Positions 9,921-61,408 of a stretch of DNA of 64,000 bases are shown in pieces (the first letter of the stretch is position 1; each line of letters begins with the position of its first letter). The notes beneath the pieces were generated by a model that saw only the letters and a list, made by a program, of their open reading frames with translations, made no database searches and was not told the origin of the DNA. A program made the position numbers and the translations under genes. Source of the DNA: Deltaproteobacteria bacterium (GTDB lineage: Bacteria > Desulfobacterota > Syntrophia > Syntrophales > Smithellaceae); assembly GCA_012729055.1 (NCBI GenBank), contig JAAYDW010000032.1:1839-65838 (forward strand), written 5' to 3'.

Positions 9921-10472
9921 TTATTCTCCTGGCGGCTGGAGGAGTTTTCGCAGTTCGTCGGCAAAAATGTCACAGGTGTTTTGGTCGAACAAGACGTGGC
10001 GGATGAGCTGAATCTCCGTATTTTCCCCGGCGAAGTCCAGGCAGGCGGAAAGCGCAATGCGCGCGGCTTCATTGATCGGGTAGCCGTAAACCCCGCAGCT
10101 GATCGCCGGAAACGCGATGCTGTGCAGGCCCCGGCGCTTGGCGAGCTGAAGGCTGCTGGCATAAGCGGACGAAAGCAGCCGGGCTTCGCCGTGTCCGCCT
10201 CCGCGGTACACGGGACCGACGGTGTGGATGACATAACGGGCCTTGAGATTGCCGCCTGTCGTGATCACGGCCTCGCCCGTCGGACAGCCGCCGATTTTGC
10301 GGCATTCGGCCATGATGGCGGGGCCGCCGGCGCGGTGAATGGCCCCGTCGACGCCCGCGCCGCCCGCAAGCCGGCTGTTGGCGGCATTGACGATGGCGTC
10401 GGTTTCTTCTTCGGTAATGTCTCCGCGGACGAGTTCGATGACGGTTTGATTTCCGGTGATGCGCATGCTCAT
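9921..10472 (-). CDS. macro-domain protein, O-acetyl-ADP-ribose deacetylase (YmdB-like)
   Basis: GDITEEETDAIVNAAN...GGGVDGAIH-like motifs and IAFPAISCGVYGYP. Start is ATG 10472 (ATGA overlap with the upstream stop) or ATG 10466 (GGAGGA SD). Confidence 0.9.
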   Translation of the reverse strand: MSMRITGNQTVIELVRGDITEEETDAIVNAANSRLAGGAGVDGAIHRAGGPAIMAECRKIGGCPTGEAVITTGGNLKARYVIHTVGPVYRGGGHGEARLLSSAYASSLQLAKRRGLHSIAFPAISCGVYGYPINEAARIALSACLDFAGENTEIQLIRHVLFDQNTCDIFADELRKLLQPPGE

Positions 10473-12127
10473 TCCTCCCCGGTGATCCGCGTTCCTTCTC
10501 CGTAAACCAGCATCCGGTAGGTTTTTTCGATCCGGTCCCAGTTTTCCTCGCGGTCCATCGACCAGTAGCGTCCGATGACGGACACCACCTGCCCCAAACC
10601 GAGCGACAGACATTTTTCCTCCACCTGCCGGATGTAGCGAGCGCCGCTTGCGGCTTGTTCGCCGCGCCGCCCCAGCATGGAGTGGATGTACAAACGGGGA
10701 ACGCCCCGGCCGGCGGCCATGTCCATCAGGGCAAACAGGTGGTCGATCGAGCCGTGCGAACTGAAAAATGAGACGATTCCCATGAGGTGCAGCGCCCGGT
10801 CGTTTTTGACGGCCCGGTCCATGGCGCGGAGGAAAACGTCGTTTTGAGAAAAATCCTGCCGGGCGATCGACCGGTCGATATTCAGGCGGTCGGAGTAAAT
10901 GCGCCGGCCCGCGCCGATGTGCAGATGCCCCGCTTCGGAGTTGCCCACGGTTCCGGCGGGAAGACCCACAGCCAGGCCGGAGGCGGCGAGCCGCGCCGAA
11001 GGGAAGTCGCGAAGCAGCCGGTCCATCACCGGCGTGTCGGCGCAGGCGATCAGGTTATCCTGGGTGTTGTCACACAAACCCCAGCCGTCAAGAATGATCA
11101 ACAGCAGGCGCGAAACGGGGGCAGAGCAGGAGGGCTTGTCCGCAATCAGCGAGGCGCCGGTCATGGACGCAGGGCCGGGCAGGTCCAGCAAGTCCAGAAC
11201 CGTCGGAGCGATGTCCGTCAGTTCTCCTGCGGATTTCAGCGTCAGGTTTTGCTCCGGGTGCAGAAGAACAAAAGGCACGGGGCTGTCCGTATGTCCGGTG
11301 TCCACACCGCCGTTCGGGTAGCGCCATTTTTCCACCGTGCCGTGGTCGGCTGTGACGATGACGGTCATCTTTTCGCGGGCCGCTTCTTCGATGAGCAGTC
11401 CGGCATGGCGGTCCACCGCCGCGACGGCCCGGAGCACCGCCGGTTCGTTTTCAATATGGCCGACGACGTCGACGTTCGGAAGATTGACCACGATGAACCG
11501 GCAGGACGGATCCCGGATCTTCGCCAGCGCCGCGCGGGTGATGTCCGCAATCGACATTTCCGGCGCTTCGTCAAACAGTTTGACGTCCTTGCGCGTCGGA
11601 ATGACGATTCTTTCCTCGTTTCGCAGCGGGTCGGCTTTCTTGCCGTTGAAGAAGAAGCCGACATGAACCGCTTTTTCCGCTTCCGTGATCTTGGCCTGGG
11701 TGAAGCCCCGGCTGGCCAGGATATCGCTTAGCGTATCCGTCAGAACGCCCTGGGGCGGAAAAGCCACGTCGACATCCAAACCCTTCTGATATTCGATCAT
11801 CGTCGCAAAGTGGACGGGAAGATTGTCGTGGACGGGAAATCCGCGAAAGCCTTTTTCCGTAAAACTGCGCGTCAGTTCGATTTCGCGTTCGCCGCGGATA
11901 TTGTAAAAAATAATGGAGTCGTCCGGGGATATTCTTCCCAGCGGATTTTGCCGGGCGTCGGCAAGCACCAGCGGGAGAAGCGTCTCATCCTCCTGTCCCT
12001 GCGTGTAGGCGTCGGCAACCGCGCGGGACATGGGGAAGGAAATTTTTGTAGAGCACATGGGGGTATCCGTCTGTCCGTTTTTGGAGTGTATTTTTTCGAA
12101 GGAGTTATCTAGCGAAATAATGTCCAC
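10469..12127 (-). CDS. gpmI: 2,3-bisphosphoglycerate-independent phosphoglycerate mutase, circularly permuted domain order
   Basis: All iPGM signature blocks are present once, but reordered. Residues ~33-328 match the canonical C-terminal two thirds (IFYNIRGER, EAEKAVHVGFFFNG, DVVGH, TADHGT, TGHT). Residues ~339-552 match the canonical N-terminus (ILDGWG, VGNSEAGHLHIGAGR, GRYWSMDREENWDRIEKTY). Start codon is uncertain (GTG 12127 has no clear SD). Confidence 0.85.
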   Translation of the reverse strand: MDIISLDNSFEKIHSKNGQTDTPMCSTKISFPMSRAVADAYTQGQEDETLLPLVLADARQNPLGRISPDDSIIFYNIRGEREIELTRSFTEKGFRGFPVHDNLPVHFATMIEYQKGLDVDVAFPPQGVLTDTLSDILASRGFTQAKITEAEKAVHVGFFFNGKKADPLRNEERIVIPTRKDVKLFDEAPEMSIADITRAALAKIRDPSCRFIVVNLPNVDVVGHIENEPAVLRAVAAVDRHAGLLIEEAAREKMTVIVTADHGTVEKWRYPNGGVDTGHTDSPVPFVLLHPEQNLTLKSAGELTDIAPTVLDLLDLPGPASMTGASLIADKPSCSAPVSRLLLIILDGWGLCDNTQDNLIACADTPVMDRLLRDFPSARLAASGLAVGLPAGTVGNSEAGHLHIGAGRRIYSDRLNIDRSIARQDFSQNDVFLRAMDRAVKNDRALHLMGIVSFFSSHGSIDHLFALMDMAAGRGVPRLYIHSMLGRRGEQAASGARYIRQVEEKCLSLGLGQVVSVIGRYWSMDREENWDRIEKTYRMLVYGEGTRITGEE

Positions 12128-24666: not shown

Positions 24667-25764
24667 ATGAAAAAACTGCTGTTGGTCATCATCTGTGTCA
24701 CGCTTCTGGGCGTTTTGTATTTGCTGTTCTGACCGGTGCCGATTAAGCCCGTTGCCTGGAAGGCGCCCGAACCGCCCGGTTATACGGGGCCGCACGCCGC
24801 AAACACGAAACTGGCTTCGCTCCGCCTGATTTCGCTCGGCGCCGAGGAAGGGCCGGAGCACATCGTCATCGGCAAGGACGGCAAGCTTTACACAACCGTG
24901 CTGAGCGGCAATATTCTCCGCATGAATCCAGACGGCAGCGCTAAGGAGGTCTTTGTCAATACCGGCGGGCGTGTGCTGGGATTTGATTTCGACGCCCGGG
25001 GGAACCTCATCGCCGCGGACGCGGTAAAAGGCCTGCTGTCTGTCGGCCCCGACCGGAAAGTCACTCTCCTTGCCGACAGGGCCGGCAACGAGCCGATCCG
25101 CTATGCCGACGCGGTCGTTGTCGCCGGTTCGGGTAAAATTTACTTCAGCGACGCGTCCGGCCGCTTTGCGCCCGCCGACTGGGGTGGAACCTTCGAGGCC
25201 AGCATTCTGGATATCCTGGAACAGTCGTCCACCGGACGGATTCTGGAGTACGATCCGGTTGCAGAAACCGCGCGGGTAGTGGCCAGGGGATTGAGTTTTG
25301 CCAACGGCATTGCGCTCGGCCGCGATGAACAATCGCTCTTTGTGAATGAAACCGGCAAATACCGTGTCTGGAAAATTTCCGTCGCGGCGCGCGATCTCGA
25401 TGTGGCCCAGGGCGGCGACCAGGCCCGCGTATTGCTGGATAACCTGCCCGGCTATCCGGACAATCTCATGCGGGGGGAAGACGGCAGAATCTGGCTGGGC
25501 TTTGCCAAGCCGCGCAACGCGGTCGTAGACAGGCTGGCTGAAAAGCCGTTTTTGCGCAAGATCACGCTCCGGCTGCCGCGCGCCTTGTGGCCGGTGCCGA
25601 AGGCCTACGGCCACGTGATCGCCTTTACCGAAGACGGACGGATTGTCGCTGATTTGCAGGATCCCAGCGGCGCTTACCCGGAAACGACGGGTGTGACGGA
25701 AACCGCCGACCGGCTTTACATCCAGAGCCTGCATGCCAGGGGACTGGGGTGGATGGCGAAATAG
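24667..25764 (+). pseudogene. strictosidine synthase-like / SMP-30 beta-propeller protein interrupted by an in-frame TGA after the signal anchor
   Basis: ATG 24667 encodes MKKLLLVIICVTLLGVLYLLF. A TGA follows at 24730-24732. The same frame then continues PVPIKPVAWKAPEPPGY... into ORF 24736..25764. Confidence 0.5.
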
Positions 25765-25834: not shown

Positions 25835-26608
25835 ATGAACATTTCCGAACTGCTGGTAAAAAGCGTGCTGGTAAAAAGCGTTGCGGAAGAGGAGCAGGTC
25901 AGTATCCTTTATGAAGGCCGGGAGTACACCAACGCAAACCTTGACTGCACGGCCAGAAAGCTCGGCAACGCCCTCATGAAACTGGGCGTGAAGCGCGGCG
26001 ACCGGGTCATTCTGCAAATGCCCAACTGTTCGGAGATCTTTTCGGCCTTTCAAGCCATCTGGAAGATCGGCGCGGTGAGCGTACCCATCAACTATCAGGT
26101 GGGCATGGAAATGAAGATCTTCGACAATCAGGACCGGGAAGTTCCGCCGGGGCAGGAAGGCGAAATCGTTCTCCGCGGACCGATGGTGATGAAAGGCTGC
26201 TGGCGGCAGCCCGAAGCGACAGCGGAAATAATCCGCAACGGCTGGCTGCATACGGTCGATATCGGCTACGTGGACGCCGACGGTTACTTCTTCATTGCCG
26301 ACCGGAAGAAGGATATCATCATCAAGGGCGGTGAAAACATTTCACCTCGGGCGATTGAAGAAGTGCTCTACGCCCATCCGACGGTTGCCGAAGCCGCCGT
26401 GATCGGCGTGAAAGATTCGGTTTACGGAGAAGAGATCAAGGCGTTTGTCGCGCTCAAACCCGGTCTGTCGGCGACCGCGGAGGAAATTCGGGAATTTTGC
26501 CGGCAGAAGCTGAAGCGCTTCTTCGTACCCGGAGAGGTGGCCATTCTTCCGGCCCTGCCCAAATCGCTCGTCGGTAAAATCCTGAAGAAGGAGCTGCGCA
26601 AGTTGTAG
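25835..26608 (+). CDS. AMP-dependent synthetase/ligase remnant (N-terminal ~88 aa fused in frame to the C-terminal ~165 aa; central catalytic core absent)
   Basis: The N-terminal block ...GVKRGDRVILQMPNCSEIFSAFQAIWKIGAVSVPIN joins directly to the C-terminal block GQEGEIVLRGPMVMKGCW...DGYFFIADRKKDIIIKGGENISPRAIEEVL...GKILKKEL. No TSGTTGxPKG-type P-loop is present. Confidence 0.7.
   Translation: MNISELLVKSVLVKSVAEEEQVSILYEGREYTNANLDCTARKLGNALMKLGVKRGDRVILQMPNCSEIFSAFQAIWKIGAVSVPINYQVGMEMKIFDNQDREVPPGQEGEIVLRGPMVMKGCWRQPEATAEIIRNGWLHTVDIGYVDADGYFFIADRKKDIIIKGGENISPRAIEEVLYAHPTVAEAAVIGVKDSVYGEEIKAFVALKPGLSATAEEIREFCRQKLKRFFVPGEVAILPALPKSLVGKILKKELRKL
25856..25885 (+). repeat. 15-bp tandem duplication (CTGGTAAAAAGCGTG / CTGGTAAAAAGCGTT) inside the ligase remnant, encoding LVKSV-LVKSV
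   Basis: Read directly; 14/15 identity. Confidence 0.9.
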
Positions 26609-36000: not shown

Positions 36001-36834
36001 ATGGGATTAGGAGACGCGGCCAAGGATCTTTTTGCGGAATATCGACAGAAGTATTTGGATGACCGGCTGAGATTTTCAAACAGCATCAAACTATCTGCGG
36101 GAAGAAGTGAAGGCCGCATCAGCCGCGCCCTTTACCAGCCGTACAAATGGCTGTTTGTTTTTCCGTTGCTTGTCGTGACCACGTTTATCTTCGGAATCGG
36201 CGCCGTTGTCTTTGCGCTCTTGTTTTCACCGCGCATCGGCAGCGTCAGCGGCGTACTCTGGGCCAGGATCAACAGCTTTTTCACTCCGATGACCGTCGCC
36301 GTCAAGGGCGCCGAAAACATGAAGCCGGGAGCGTCGTATGTGATAACGGCCAATCACCAGAGTCTCTACGACATCTACGTCCTGTACGGCTGGGTGGGCG
36401 TCGATTTCAAATGGGTCATGAAGAAAGAGCTGGAAAAGGTTCCGGTGCTCGGATTTGCCTGCAAGGTCCTGGGGCATATTTTCATTGACCGGTCCGATAC
36501 GAAAAAGGCCGTTGAAACCATTAACGCCGCCAAAACCAAAATCGCAAACGGAACGTCCGTTCTCTTTTTCCCGGAAGGTTCGCGAAGCAGCGACGGGGCC
36601 ATGAAACCGTTCAAGAAAGGCGCCTTCAAGATGGCGCTGGACCTCGGGCTGCCCATCTTACCCGTCACCATCAACGGCACTCGCAACATCCTGCCGAAAG
36701 GAAGCATTGACTTGCGACCCGGTAACGTGACCATGATCATTCACAAACCGATTCCCGTCACGGACTACCATGAAGAAAACATGACGGAACTGATGGATAA
36801 GACGAGAGTGATCATGAACGCGTCCCGGGACTGA
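36001..36834 (+). CDS. 1-acyl-sn-glycerol-3-phosphate acyltransferase family protein (PlsC-like)
   Basis: NHQSLYD (HX4D) and FPEGSRS motifs; N-terminal TM segment. Confidence 0.85.
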   Translation: MGLGDAAKDLFAEYRQKYLDDRLRFSNSIKLSAGRSEGRISRALYQPYKWLFVFPLLVVTTFIFGIGAVVFALLFSPRIGSVSGVLWARINSFFTPMTVAVKGAENMKPGASYVITANHQSLYDIYVLYGWVGVDFKWVMKKELEKVPVLGFACKVLGHIFIDRSDTKKAVETINAAKTKIANGTSVLFFPEGSRSSDGAMKPFKKGAFKMALDLGLPILPVTINGTRNILPKGSIDLRPGNVTMIIHKPIPVTDYHEENMTELMDKTRVIMNASRD

Positions 36835-36873
36835 ATTGTTGTCTCAGGAAGTTTTGAAGGGGATAAAGACCGC

Positions 36874-38298
36874 ATGACAAGAAGGGCCTCCCGGCTTAAT
36901 CCGTTTTTCAACCCCCAGAGCATCGCCCTGTTCGGCAGCATGCAGGAAAACTGGTTTTTCGGCGCCGGCGTCATTATCGGCGATTTGTTGAAATGGAACT
37001 ACCGGGGGCAAATCTATCCTGTTCATCCCAGCGCGCAAACGGTCTACGGCGTCAAAGTCTATCGCAGTCTGAGCGAGGTGGACGCCGTTCCCGAGCTGGC
37101 GGTGATCGTCACCTCTTTCAAGCACGTGCCCGGTATTCTTCACCAGTGCGGAACGAAGGGCGTCAAGGCGGCCGTTATCGTTTCCGATGGATTCGGAGAG
37201 GCGGGAGTGAAAGGCAAAATTCGCCAGGAAGAGCTGCTCCTCATTGCAAAATCCTACGGCATGCGTATCATGGGGCCGAACACGGTCGGGGTTTTCAATT
37301 CCGAAAACGGGTTCACTACCGTTCCCTACGATCGGGGCTACGAGTACAACAGGCGGGGCAAACTCTCCATTATTACCCAGACCGGCATGTACAGCCCGCA
37401 GGCCATGGCGTGGGATGAATACGCAGCCGGGATCAATAAAGTCATTGATCTGGGAAATATGTGCGATATCGATGAGACGGACTGTCTGGACTATCTCGGA
37501 GAGGATGACAGCACGGATGTCATTTCCCTCTACATGGAGCATTCGCGGCGGCCCGGGATGTTTCTGGACATTCTTAAAAAAGTTTCTTTGAAAAAACCTG
37601 TTTTGTGCCTCAAGCCCGGGACATCGGCCGGCGCCGCTCAGGCCATGGCGTCCCACACGGGCTCCCTGGCCGGCAAGGCGAACCTGTACGAGGCGGTCCT
37701 GAAGCAAGGCGGCGCCCTCCGGGTCGAGGAATACGAAGACCTCCGCGATTGCGCCACCCCGTTTCTCCGCTATCCTCTTCCCCGAGGAAACCGTCTGGGA
37801 GTGATCACCTTTTCCGGGGCCATCGGCATTCAGGCGATTGATGCCGCTGAAGCGGGCGGTCTTTCTCTCGGGGAACTTTCGCCGGAAAGCCGCCGCCGGC
37901 TGGCCGCCGCGAGCGACACGCTGGGCAACCACCCCGTGGACGTGGGGCCCGCGTCGGCTGCGGTGGGCGCTGAAATATTTTCTTTGTACAGAAAATGTTT
38001 CGATGTCCTCCGGGAGGATGAAAACATCGATTGTATTTACTTTAACGGTTATGTTTCGCACGGATTGCAGCCGGCTTTCTACGAGGAGTTGCTTTGCTAC
38101 ATCGGATCCTGTCGCGAGAAACCGATCGTCTCCTGGTGCTACGGGCCGTCGCAGAAACTGGTGCTGGAATTCGGGGCGCTGGCTGAACGCTTCGGCATCC
38201 CCTTTTACTTGTCGAGCCGCAAAGCCGTCCGGTCTCTGTCCTACATGGCCGGGTATGCCCGCTGGAAAACCGCGTGGTCGGCGTCCGGCCGGTCGTGA
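36874..38298 (+). CDS. ADP-forming acyl-CoA synthetase alpha-type subunit (CoA-binding + succinyl-CoA-ligase-like domains only)
   Basis: FFNPQSIALFGS CoA-binding start and phosphohistidine motif MASHTGSLAG. No ATP-grasp (beta) domain in the ORF or next to it. Confidence 0.8.
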   Translation: MTRRASRLNPFFNPQSIALFGSMQENWFFGAGVIIGDLLKWNYRGQIYPVHPSAQTVYGVKVYRSLSEVDAVPELAVIVTSFKHVPGILHQCGTKGVKAAVIVSDGFGEAGVKGKIRQEELLLIAKSYGMRIMGPNTVGVFNSENGFTTVPYDRGYEYNRRGKLSIITQTGMYSPQAMAWDEYAAGINKVIDLGNMCDIDETDCLDYLGEDDSTDVISLYMEHSRRPGMFLDILKKVSLKKPVLCLKPGTSAGAAQAMASHTGSLAGKANLYEAVLKQGGALRVEEYEDLRDCATPFLRYPLPRGNRLGVITFSGAIGIQAIDAAEAGGLSLGELSPESRRRLAAASDTLGNHPVDVGPASAAVGAEIFSLYRKCFDVLREDENIDCIYFNGYVSHGLQPAFYEELLCYIGSCREKPIVSWCYGPSQKLVLEFGALAERFGIPFYLSSRKAVRSLSYMAGYARWKTAWSASGRS

Positions 38299-58606: not shown

Positions 58607-58723
58607 GCCCCTTCTCACAGCCTCTGCGTTTTTGTACGGCCAGCCCCCGGCCGGCAAAGACGCAGGGGCTTCTTTGGAAAACCTTTGCGGCTGCGGCCGT
58701 TTTCAGCGGTCAGCAATCCCCCG

Positions 58724-58753
58724 TTGATCTTTCCTTGCCGATAATGCTAGAAT
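58724..58753 (+). promoter_or_regulatory. putative promoter of the DsbA-like selenoprotein gene (TTGATC-N18-TAGAAT)
   Basis: Hexamers read by eye, about 32 nt upstream of ATG 58785. Confidence 0.45.
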
Positions 58754-58784
58754 CCGGGCACCTTGGGAATCGAAAGGAGCTTTG

Positions 58785-59378
58785 ATGATCCGCATCAGAA
58801 TTTTTTCCGATTATGTCTGACCTTTTTGCTATATCGGCAAGGCGATTGTCGATCGGCTGAAGAAGGAATATCCGATAGTGGAAGAGTGGATAAGCTATGA
58901 ACTGCATCCGGAAACGCCGTCCGAAGGCATGTTGCTTTCCGAGCGTTTTAAAGGCAGAGACCTCGCGCCTTTTTACGCTCAGTTAAAGTTACGCGGCGAT
59001 GAACTGGGCATCGTCTTTAAAGAACACGCCATCCTTTCCAATTCCCGTTTGGCGCTCTTGGCCTCTGAGTATGCCCGCGACCGGGGGCGGCATGATGTGT
59101 TTCATGAAAACATGTTTCAGGCGTATCTGAGCCGGGCGCAGGATATCGGCCGACCGGAAGTGGTCGGCGCGGTCGCCGCCGCAAGCGGCCTCGGCGCCGA
59201 AGAAACGCTGGCGGCGGCAGGCGACGGCCGCTATGCGCCCCGACTCGCGGAAGCGGCCGGCGAAGGGCGGATGCTCGGATTGACGGGGATTCCTCTGTTC
59301 ATCGTCAATGACGCTTACAAGATCACCGGCGCTCAGCCGCTGGAGGTTTTCCGAGACCTTTTGGGCAGGCTGGCATGA
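58785..59378 (+). CDS. DsbA/FrnE-family thiol:disulfide oxidoreductase, predicted selenoprotein (TGA 58818-58820 read as Sec; active site U-P-F-C)
   Basis: ATG 58785 is preceded by AAAGGAG. The frame reads MIRIRIFSDYV-TGA-PFCYIGKAIVDRLKKEYPIVEEW and is continuous with ORF 58878..59378. The TGA is at the first Cys position of the family CxxC motif. Confidence 0.7.
58832..58877 (+). other. candidate bacterial SECIS-like stem-loop downstream of the in-frame TGA
   Basis: Hand fold. The outer helix is TATCGG (58832-58837) / CCGATA (58872-58877). The inner hairpin is CGATT-GTC-GATCG (58843-58855) with a GU-containing apical loop about 28 nt after the UGA. Confidence 0.35.
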
Positions 59379-59449
59379 CGGTCTGAGTCTTTTTTGAGCC
59401 GCCGGAAATGCCGGCGTCGTACCGACCGCAAAAAACAAGGAGGTAACGC

Positions 59450-60736: not shown

Positions 60737-60811
60737 ATTTAAACCGTGCGGCAAGTCCCCCTTGCTCCGATGACCGGAGGGGCGACCTTGCTTGAGAAAG
60801 GAGAAGATTTA

Positions 60812-61408
60812 ATGAAAAGGTTTTTTTTCAGGATGATTTTCCTGGCGCTGGTTGTTCTGACGCCCATTTCAGCGATGGCGGATGTGGATGTAAAAATCGG
60901 CATCAATATTCCCCTTCCGCCGCCGATCCTTTTTCCGGCGCCGCCGGAGGTGATCGTGATTCCGGAAACCGACGTTTATGCGGTGCCCGATGTTGATGTC
61001 GATATTTTCTTTTACGGCGGCTGGTGGTGGCGCCCGTGGGAGGGACGCTGGTATCGATCCCGTTATTACGACAGGGGCTGGAGCCACTACAACCGGGCGC
61101 CCTCATTTTACCGGAATGTGCCGCCAGGATGGAGAAACGATTATCGGGACCGCCGGTGGAAAGGCCATGAGTGGGATCAACGCCGCATTCCCTACGGTGA
61201 CGCGAAGAAAAACTGGCGCAGCTGGAAGCGCAACAAGCACTGGGAAAAGGAAAACCACTGGGGCGTGAGAGGAATGGATCGCAGGCCGTCCGGTCAGCAG
61301 AAAAAGTACCGCGACCGCTATGACGGACCGCAACGCGGGAATGGCCCCGGACCCGGCCCCAAGGGCGGACCGGGAAGGGATCGCCCAGACAGGGGCGACA
61401 GAAGATAA
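60812..61408 (+). CDS. secreted Trp/Arg-rich low-complexity protein (hypothetical)
   Basis: ATG 60812 is preceded by AAAGGAGAAG. Signal peptide MKRFFFRMIFLALVVLTPISAMA, then GGWWWRPWEGRWYRSRYYDRGW... and a Gly/Pro/Arg-rich tail. Confidence 0.6.
   Translation: MKRFFFRMIFLALVVLTPISAMADVDVKIGINIPLPPPILFPAPPEVIVIPETDVYAVPDVDVDIFFYGGWWWRPWEGRWYRSRYYDRGWSHYNRAPSFYRNVPPGWRNDYRDRRWKGHEWDQRRIPYGDAKKNWRSWKRNKHWEKENHWGVRGMDRRPSGQQKKYRDRYDGPQRGNGPGPGPKGGPGRDRPDRGDRR

Follow-up and report, generated by a model that had tools for sequence, protein, structure and literature searches.

A FrnE/DsbA-like gene of Smithellaceae with an in-frame TGA predicted to encode selenocysteine

Results

The gene at 58785-59378 and its reading frame

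We analyzed a stretch of 64,000 nucleotides from a Deltaproteobacteria bacterium of the Smithellaceae (assembly GCA_012729055.1, contig JAAYDW010000032.1, positions 1,839 to 65,838 of the forward strand), hereafter called the window, and describe a FrnE/DsbA-like gene at 58785-59378 on its forward (+) strand whose codon 12 is an in-frame TGA. All features of this gene given below lie on the same strand, and positions are those of the window. The coding sequence, delimited by its translation, by its matches to Pfam DSBA and FrnE and by 71 orthologous loci, comprises 197 codons including the predicted selenocysteine (Sec) 12, plus a TGA stop. The frame opens at ATG 58785 with MIRIRIFSDYV, runs into the TGA at 58818-58820, continues with PFCYIGKAIVDRLKKEYPIVEEW and stays open up to the TGA at 59376-59378, which is the true stop codon since the alignment of orthologous proteins ends there. 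Direct reading of the sequence places the Shine-Dalgarno motif AAAGGAG at 58773-58779, 5 nt upstream of the ATG, and in most orthologous loci an ATG with a Shine-Dalgarno-like motif is likewise found 11-12 codons ahead of the TGA. Downstream of the in-frame TGA, the codon TGC at 58827-58829 encodes Cys15, the sole cysteine of the protein and the resolving Cys of the predicted UxxC motif, which is invariant in 58 of 58 ungapped Sec-form sequences. A mechanical list of open reading frames (ORFs) contains only 58878-59378, a GTG-started frame of 166 amino acids that is in phase with the ATG and begins past the UxxC. Thus, the description given in an earlier sequence-only reading of the window was confirmed with regard to the AAAGGAG spacing, the uninterrupted frame across the TGA and the absence of the active site from the GTG-58878 version.

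Family, fold and active site

For all protein searches, the residue encoded by the TGA was replaced by Cys. The DSBA profile (PF01323) matched residues 4-193 with E=6e-28; the score of 98.3 bits lies above the cut-off of 25.6, and the match extends over positions 2-190 of the 191 in the profile. The closest solved structure by sequence was FrnE of Deinococcus radiodurans (5cnw/5cp1; E=1e-19, residues 2-190), and SCO1869 of Streptomyces coelicolor was found as well. The FrnE alignment sets IRIRIFSDYV-U-PFCYIGK of the window protein opposite IRVDIWSDIA-C-PWCYIGK, with residue 12 facing Cys22 of FrnE. Since this is the first Cys of the FrnE CPWC motif, the TGA stands at the first, attacking Cys of CxxC and is predicted from this alignment and from the orthologous loci to encode the attacking Sec of a U-P-F-C redox motif. 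Both the family and the position of the TGA in the motif therefore agree with what the sequence-only reading had proposed.

Structural comparisons were based on the AlphaFold model of a Cys orthologue (P0005) that is 65% identical to the window protein and was modelled from a 46-sequence alignment. This model has a mean pLDDT (predicted local distance difference test) of 91, with strand beta1 at residues 2-8 and helix alpha1 beginning at residue 13, so that residue 12 would cap the helix. In a Foldseek comparison of the model with the PDB the FrnE structures ranked at the top, with query-normalised TM (template modelling) scores of 0.87-0.91, followed by SCO1869. Moreover, T167, G168 and P170 are invariant in alignment A1 and lie opposite TGVPFF of FrnE. 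On the basis of these two alignments the codons for T167-G168-I169-P170 (59283-59294) were assigned to the cis-proline loop, and the fold suggests the cis geometry of this T-G-[IV]-P loop and its orientation towards the active site. The protein has no signal peptide; as the active site starts at residue 12, directly after beta1, there is no room for one, which argues for a cytoplasmic location. It ends at residue 197 without the C-terminal CxxxxC tail of D. radiodurans FrnE and was therefore placed in the FrnE branch, not in the D. radiodurans subtype. These comparisons support a putative cytoplasmic thiol-disulfide oxidoreductase with 197 residues and a predicted U12-P-F-C15 centre, belonging to the FrnE branch within the DsbA family.

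Codon 12 across relatives

Scanning one genome per GTDB species yielded 74 loci, 71 of which cover codon 12. This codon is TGA in 61 loci, TGC or TGT in 10 and TGG in none; Cys also occupies the column in 11 database proteins, so that the Cys orthologues which had been expected at this site do exist. The TGA forms belong mostly to Smithella, Smithellaceae, Syntrophaceae and delta-proteobacterial metagenome-assembled genomes (MAGs) lacking a finer name. Further ones come from contigs labelled Syntrophus, Syntrophorhabdus and Desulfobacteraceae and from the Clostridial isolate Desnuesiella massiliensis, and the same TGA is present in independent metagenome contigs. Two complete chromosomes of Smithellaceae (OY820932.1, OY821638.1) have the TGA form as well. 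Locus L001, from a MAG of Syntrophaceae bacterium UBA1411, shares synteny with the window and is 90-92% identical to it in nucleotide sequence. On both sides of the codon the flanks FSDY[IV]-TGA-PFCYIGKG are conserved as protein in the 61 TGA loci. Such a pattern far exceeds what chance would give. Upstream of it, I6, S8, D9 and Y10 show 100% amino-acid conservation while their codons vary (ATT/ATA/ATC, GAT/GAC, TAT/TAC), and this synonymous variation at conserved residues points to selection at the protein level ahead of the TGA. For three of the Cys forms from Smithella (L014, L027, L039) the nearest neighbours are Sec forms, with 88-94% identity. The exchange of Sec for Cys therefore seems to have been recent and repeated. 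On the strength of these sequence comparisons, we consider it very likely that codon 12 of the FrnE/DsbA-like gene is read as Sec.

The homologue in D. massiliensis (L066; NZ_LN879456.1, 10028-10079) is 39% identical to the window protein and has the same in-frame TGA, in the context FSDFV*PFCYLAKG. The organism is a cultured isolate.

A conserved hairpin downstream of the UGA

From its fold, its conservation and its synonymous sites, the segment at 58833-58853 was identified as a candidate bacterial SECIS (selenocysteine insertion sequence) element. The stem, AUCGGCAA paired with UUGUCGAU, has 8 bp in the window. Seven of them form the core at 58834-58852 (UCGGCAA/UUGUCGA), which is conserved across the family, and the eighth is an extra A-U pair. 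The apical loop of 5 nt reads GGCGA in the window but in most relatives GGGCA. Counted from the UGA, the distance is 13 nt to the stem and 20 nt to the loop. Stem and G-containing loop agree with the spacing criteria of bSECISearch, by which the candidate was judged. The 26-nt core folds with -8.4 kcal/mol (z=-2.3). A hairpin occurs at the same place in 62 of 62 Sec-form sequences, and in each of them the first or second nucleotide of the loop is a G. Of 61 distinct sequences, at least 57 form each of the seven core pairs; the stem shows few substitutions (G-C to G-U, G-U to G-C, C-G to U-G), all of them one-sided and preserving the pairing. A SECIS-like element past the UGA had been anticipated in the sequence-only reading, and this hairpin corresponds to it in its loop, its usual distance and its conservation.

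The coding sequence within the hairpin is constrained beyond its translation. Third positions in the stem are frozen, with ATC for Ile17 in 53 of 56 sequences, GGC for Gly18 in 58 of 58, ATT for Ile21 in 46 of 46 and GTC for Val22 in 55 of 56, whereas no such constraint is seen at Gly20, which lies in the loop, or at Asp23 on the edge of the stem, where the third positions vary freely. Codons 17-23 have a normalised synonymous entropy of 0.375, as against 0.698 elsewhere in the gene (Mann-Whitney p=0.014, n=6 vs 95).

For the window, the long hairpin downstream of the UGA has a minimum free energy (MFE) of -19.2 kcal/mol for 68 nt (z=-2.1). The MFE fold predicts, for the window only, an extended lower stem at 58821-58866 (CCUUUUUGCU paired with GGCUGAAGAAGG). 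Its pairs 5-48, 6-47 and 9-44 are unpaired in most relatives, and the lower stem probably does not belong to the conserved SECIS element. D. massiliensis is the only relative with a re-paired stem, which contains a one-base bulge and partly different base pairs. The hairpin is absent from distant Cys homologues. The Cys forms nested among Sec forms keep it, intact in L027 and L039 and with one C-to-U wobble change in L014 and L063, and these four hairpins look like fossil SECIS elements left after recent switches from Sec to Cys. No SECIS-like hairpin was found 3' of the TGA stop at 59376-59378, which falls within a terminator-like stem.

Points against the Sec reading and the selenium machinery

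Several observations weigh against a Sec at codon 12. The suppression of synonymous sites is drawn from only 6 codons, the conservation of the stem in part follows from the conserved peptide IGKGIVD, and the covariation test on the full predicted stem did not rise above shuffles, the stem being nearly invariant. Because of this last result and because the lower stem is not conserved, we confine the SECIS claim to the apical hairpin. An Rfam search of the whole window at the gathering threshold returned nothing, and a permissive search of 58650-59050 returned a chance snoRNA match only; this null is uninformative since Rfam has no bacterial SECIS model, and no curated covariance model was applicable. 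Pfam annotation of 50 window ORFs, which are housekeeping, transport and beta-oxidation genes, revealed no selA, selB, selD or other selenium gene. ARAGORN detected no tRNA gene, and hence no tRNA-Sec, in the 64-kb window. The flanks of the related loci, 1.09 Mb in total, likewise yielded no tRNA-Sec, and no selA, selB or selD came to light there. Moreover, tblastn searches with E. coli SelD (window and related loci) and FdhF (related loci) gave no matches, which is a weak negative.

The literature on related organisms points the other way. Syntrophus aciditrophicus has 19 selenoproteins including SelD (PMC1794560). According to Mukai et al. (PMC5389517), a composite Smithella genome belongs to the genomes carrying selC*, a Sec-tRNA mimic charged with Cys, all of which possess complete selA/B/C/D. 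By analogy with Smithella and Syntrophus, the source lineage would have the Sec machinery, and selABCD are presumably encoded in the source genome.

Other in-frame TGAs of the window

A scan of the window for further TGAs that lie in frame and have coding signal before and after them yielded two more candidates, and both were rejected as selenoproteins. The region 36001-38298 consists of two adjacent genes, an acyltransferase and a CoA (coenzyme A) ligase-like gene. The TGA at 24730-24732 corresponds to Trp (LLWPVP) in all six close orthologues inspected. It lies in a strictosidine-synthase-like/SMP-30 gene (24667-25764, + strand), directly after the N-terminal membrane anchor (MKKLLLVIICVTLLGVLYLLF*PVPIKP), and is, judged by these orthologues, a TGG-to-TGA nonsense change or an assembly error. 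Since stray TGAs thus occur in this assembly, the conservation in 61 genomes is the decisive argument for the TGA of the DsbA-like gene.

Database annotation of the family

Among the closest 120 database entries, 84 have 149-182 amino acids and start past the TGA column, and 36 are full length. The full-length entries carry Trp (25) or Cys (11) at the Sec column. About 109 of the 120 are therefore N-terminally truncated or contain a spurious Trp. In the Trp cluster P0010 (locus L075, 101-691) the codon is TGA on the DNA and was read with genetic code 4 on a short metagenome contig; other Trp entries (e.g. P0006, P0008) appear to have arisen in the same way. Gene callers cut off the active site because the in-frame TGA encodes the predicted Sec. 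No NCBIfam selenoprotein model scored above its cut-off for the window protein, which may explain the truncated products in NCBI records.

Alternative explanations for the TGA

The other example at 24730-24732, which does resemble an error or a nonsense mutation, raises the question whether codon 12, too, owes its TGA to faulty sequencing or assembly or to a recent nonsense mutation that changed TGC/TGT, in which case the gene would be an ordinary Cys-type FrnE or a pseudogene. We regard this as extremely improbable, since the 61 genomes with the same TGA were assembled independently and belong to different species and since independent metagenome contigs share it, by which the error reading is effectively refuted; besides, purifying selection acts on the remainder of the gene, which is intact. 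Even less credible is a genome-wide sense codon (genetic code 4 or 25) with Trp or Gly at this position. The Trp residues in 25 of 36 full-length homologues would fit such a reassignment, but they appear to be code-4 gene-calling artefacts on short contigs, the DNA of the one cluster checked (P0010, L075) having TGA, and none of the 71 loci has TGG at codon 12. Moreover, TGA is the commonest stop codon of the 59 coding-like ORFs in the window (TGA 26, TAA 20, TAG 13), with non-coding sequence beyond it, which refutes genome-wide reassignment and shows that the recoding is local, as had been argued in the sequence-only reading from other genes ending in TGA. Neither Trp nor Gly could replace the catalytic residue of a CxxC centre. 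A truncated protein made from GTG 58878 or another internal start, with the 11 codons before the TGA serving as a leader peptide or being non-coding, is also highly unlikely. The mechanical ORF begins at this GTG, AAGGA lies about 10-14 nt upstream of it, and most public annotations of relatives begin after the TGA (158-181 amino acids). However, such a product would lack strand beta1 and the entire UxxC centre of the thioredoxin fold, and across codons 6-11 and 13-24 the protein sequence is conserved while synonymous sites vary. The internal starts chosen by annotators differ among orthologues (Leu25 TTG, Ile17, Met40), so that no alternative start is conserved, whereas ATG 58785 is preceded by a promoter-like site and a Shine-Dalgarno sequence.

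A different kind of alternative accepts the recoding and changes the residue. The UGA might be read partly or wholly as Cys by a selC* tRNA-Cys, possibly via a second SelB, giving a conditional Sec/Cys protein. According to Mukai et al. (PMC5389517), selC* tRNA-Cys genes with GCA or UCA anticodon occur in delta-proteobacteria including the composite Smithella genome, a second selB stands beside selC* in Syntrophobacterales and Desulfobacterales, and in E. coli a variant with the UCA anticodon was shown to place Cys at a UGA codon for Sec. Cys would be functional at codon 12, as natural Cys orthologues exist. Still, neither selC* nor any other tRNA gene was found in the window or in the related loci examined, and the long-term retention of TGA and hairpin in 61 species, one point mutation away from Cys, argues that Sec itself is selected; we therefore consider decoding as Cys unlikely. 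A related proposal, to which we give a slightly better though still small chance, is that the UGA of Smithellaceae is a dual-meaning codon which, with one shared SECIS, would specify Sec in the presence of selenium and Cys, via selC* and the second SelB, in its absence. If this were true, the frequent recent Sec-to-Cys switches with fossil hairpins (L014, L027, L039) would reflect the small loss caused by inserting Cys. Sec at codon 12 is nevertheless the reading we favour.

Expression signals and neighbouring genes

A consensus scan found a sigma-70-like promoter at 58724-58753 with 9 of 12 matches, consisting of TTGATC, an 18-nt spacer and TAGAAT with TG ahead of the -10 hexamer; it is a pattern match only. 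At the other end of the gene, the same type of scan found a terminator-like hairpin with a T-run (CAGGCTGGCATGACGGTCTG AGTCTTTTTT) at 59366-59395, again only a pattern match and of a kind whose count was not above shuffles. As the promoter match precedes 58785 and the terminator-like hairpin overlaps the gene end, the gene looks monocistronic, and 58785-59378 appears to be a single-gene unit with its own promoter-like and terminator-like signals. A comparison of the flanks of related loci revealed no conserved functional operon around the DsbA-like gene. Its neighbours are beta-oxidation genes, short-chain dehydrogenases/reductases, a glyoxalase-family protein and phosphoenolpyruvate carboxykinase, shared only by close relatives or loosely.

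A gene at 60746-61408 (+) encodes a predicted secreted protein of 220 amino acids that is very rich in Trp, Arg, Tyr, Asp and Pro and has a Gly/Pro/Arg-rich tail. The protein has no Pfam match, and it is kept near the DsbA-like gene in 8 related loci.

Other genes of the window

At 10472-12127 (-) the window contains a gene for cofactor-independent phosphoglycerate mutase (iPGM) with its halves swapped, residues 35-328 of the ORF corresponding to iPGM 216-507 and residues 341-546 to iPGM 6-211. The 119 other top homologues listed, many of them from MAGs of Smithellaceae and other delta-proteobacteria, have 519-567 amino acids (mostly about 527) and align in one piece over 93-99% of the ORF, and the homologue P0253 shows the same half swap relative to PDB 1ejj. 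The swap is therefore not an assembly artefact; it resembles a natural circular permutation by which the phosphatase domain becomes contiguous. Our literature search found no description of a circular permutation of iPGM. Another ORF at 25835-26608 (+) encodes what is left of an acyl-CoA synthetase, 257 amino acids in all. About 70 residues remain from the N-terminal part of the AMP-binding domain, together with the C-terminal ~165 residues (matching PDB 3ivr residues 333-491). Since about 250 central residues are missing, the ORF is probably an internally deleted acyl-CoA synthetase gene.

Discussion

DsbA-like selenoproteins have been described before, as the sequence-only reading had stated. 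Zhang, Fomenko and Gladyshev reported in 2005 DsbA-like COG2761 proteins with UxxC and a downstream SECIS as a new selenoprotein family in Sargasso Sea data (PMC1088965). Zhang et al. found further members in 2006 in Anaeromyxobacter dehalogenans, Desulfovibrio desulfuricans and Desulfotomaculum reducens (PMC1794560), and a 2026 review lists the entry 'DsbA-like protein form 1, PF01323, UxxC' (PMC13188914). The gene analyzed in our study shares with these proteins the PF01323 domain, the FrnE-type COG2761 branch and Sec, here predicted, as the first residue of UxxC. Directly past the UGA there is in both cases a SECIS-like hairpin whose apical loop contains a G, Cys homologues are widespread, and the family occurs in delta-proteobacteria and Clostridia that are anaerobic. 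The 2006 paper also noted, as seen here, remnants of SECIS structures where Cys forms had evolved from Sec forms (PMC1794560). The published examples differ in their origin, as they come from the Sargasso Sea, A. dehalogenans, D. desulfuricans, D. reducens and Asgard archaea. In the literature open to our search the Smithellaceae/Syntrophales clade is not named among the carriers of DsbA-like selenoproteins, and the selenoproteome list of S. aciditrophicus contains no DsbA-like member (PMC1794560). The FrnE/DsbA-like selenoprotein gene thus adds a member to a family documented since 2005 and leaves the knowledge of recoding unchanged.

Similar features are found in the Cys-based FrnE of D. radiodurans (DR_0659; 5cnw, 5cp1, 5xwh), likewise a cytoplasmic DsbA-family protein in which a helical domain is inserted into the thioredoxin fold. 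Its redox motif, CPWC as against UPFC in the window protein, also stands at the N-terminus of helix alpha1, and the T-G-V/I-P loop is conserved. However, FrnE uses Cys instead of Sec, and the two sequences are no more than about 27% identical. The CxxxxC tail at the C-terminus of FrnE (residues 239-244) has been proposed to regenerate the active site, and this tail is also absent from the FrnE proteins of S. roseofulvus and D. maricopensis (PMC8945050). The thioredoxin, glutaredoxin, Prx-like and DsbG-like UxxC selenoproteins likewise have Sec in place of the N-terminal attacking Cys and a SECIS in the coding sequence immediately downstream, but they belong to other sub-families of the fold that lack the DsbA/FrnE helical insertion.

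In the mechanism we propose, translation would begin at ATG 58785 and reach the UGA at codon 12, where the hairpin at 58833-58853, within the codons for I-G-K-A-I-V-D of helix alpha1, would recruit SelB-GTP with Sec-tRNA(Sec), so that Sec would be inserted in place of termination. The second TGA at 59376, which has no such hairpin, would terminate translation. In the folded protein Sec12 would cap helix alpha1 facing the conserved T-G-I-P loop and may attack substrate disulfides, forming a selenenylsulfide that would be resolved by Cys15. Re-reduction of the oxidised Se-S centre would presumably require an external partner, the window protein having no CxxxxC recycling tail as in FrnE.

This FrnE-like gene is present in most of the sampled Smithellaceae/Syntrophales genomes and is almost always wrong in public databases. 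A family-specific selenoprotein model built from the present alignment and the hairpin would fix the annotation, and the Trp artefact produced by genetic code 4 could mislead alignments of any selenoprotein family. With the cultured isolate D. massiliensis there is a tractable organism for testing Sec insertion in the DsbA-like family. Moreover, the 61 Sec forms and the few Cys forms nested among them constitute a clean set for studying the exchange of Sec for Cys and the decay of fossil SECIS elements. For the organisms themselves, syntrophic degraders of fatty acids and alkanes, the predicted selenoprotein would extend the selenoproteome by a thiol-disulfide oxidoreductase.

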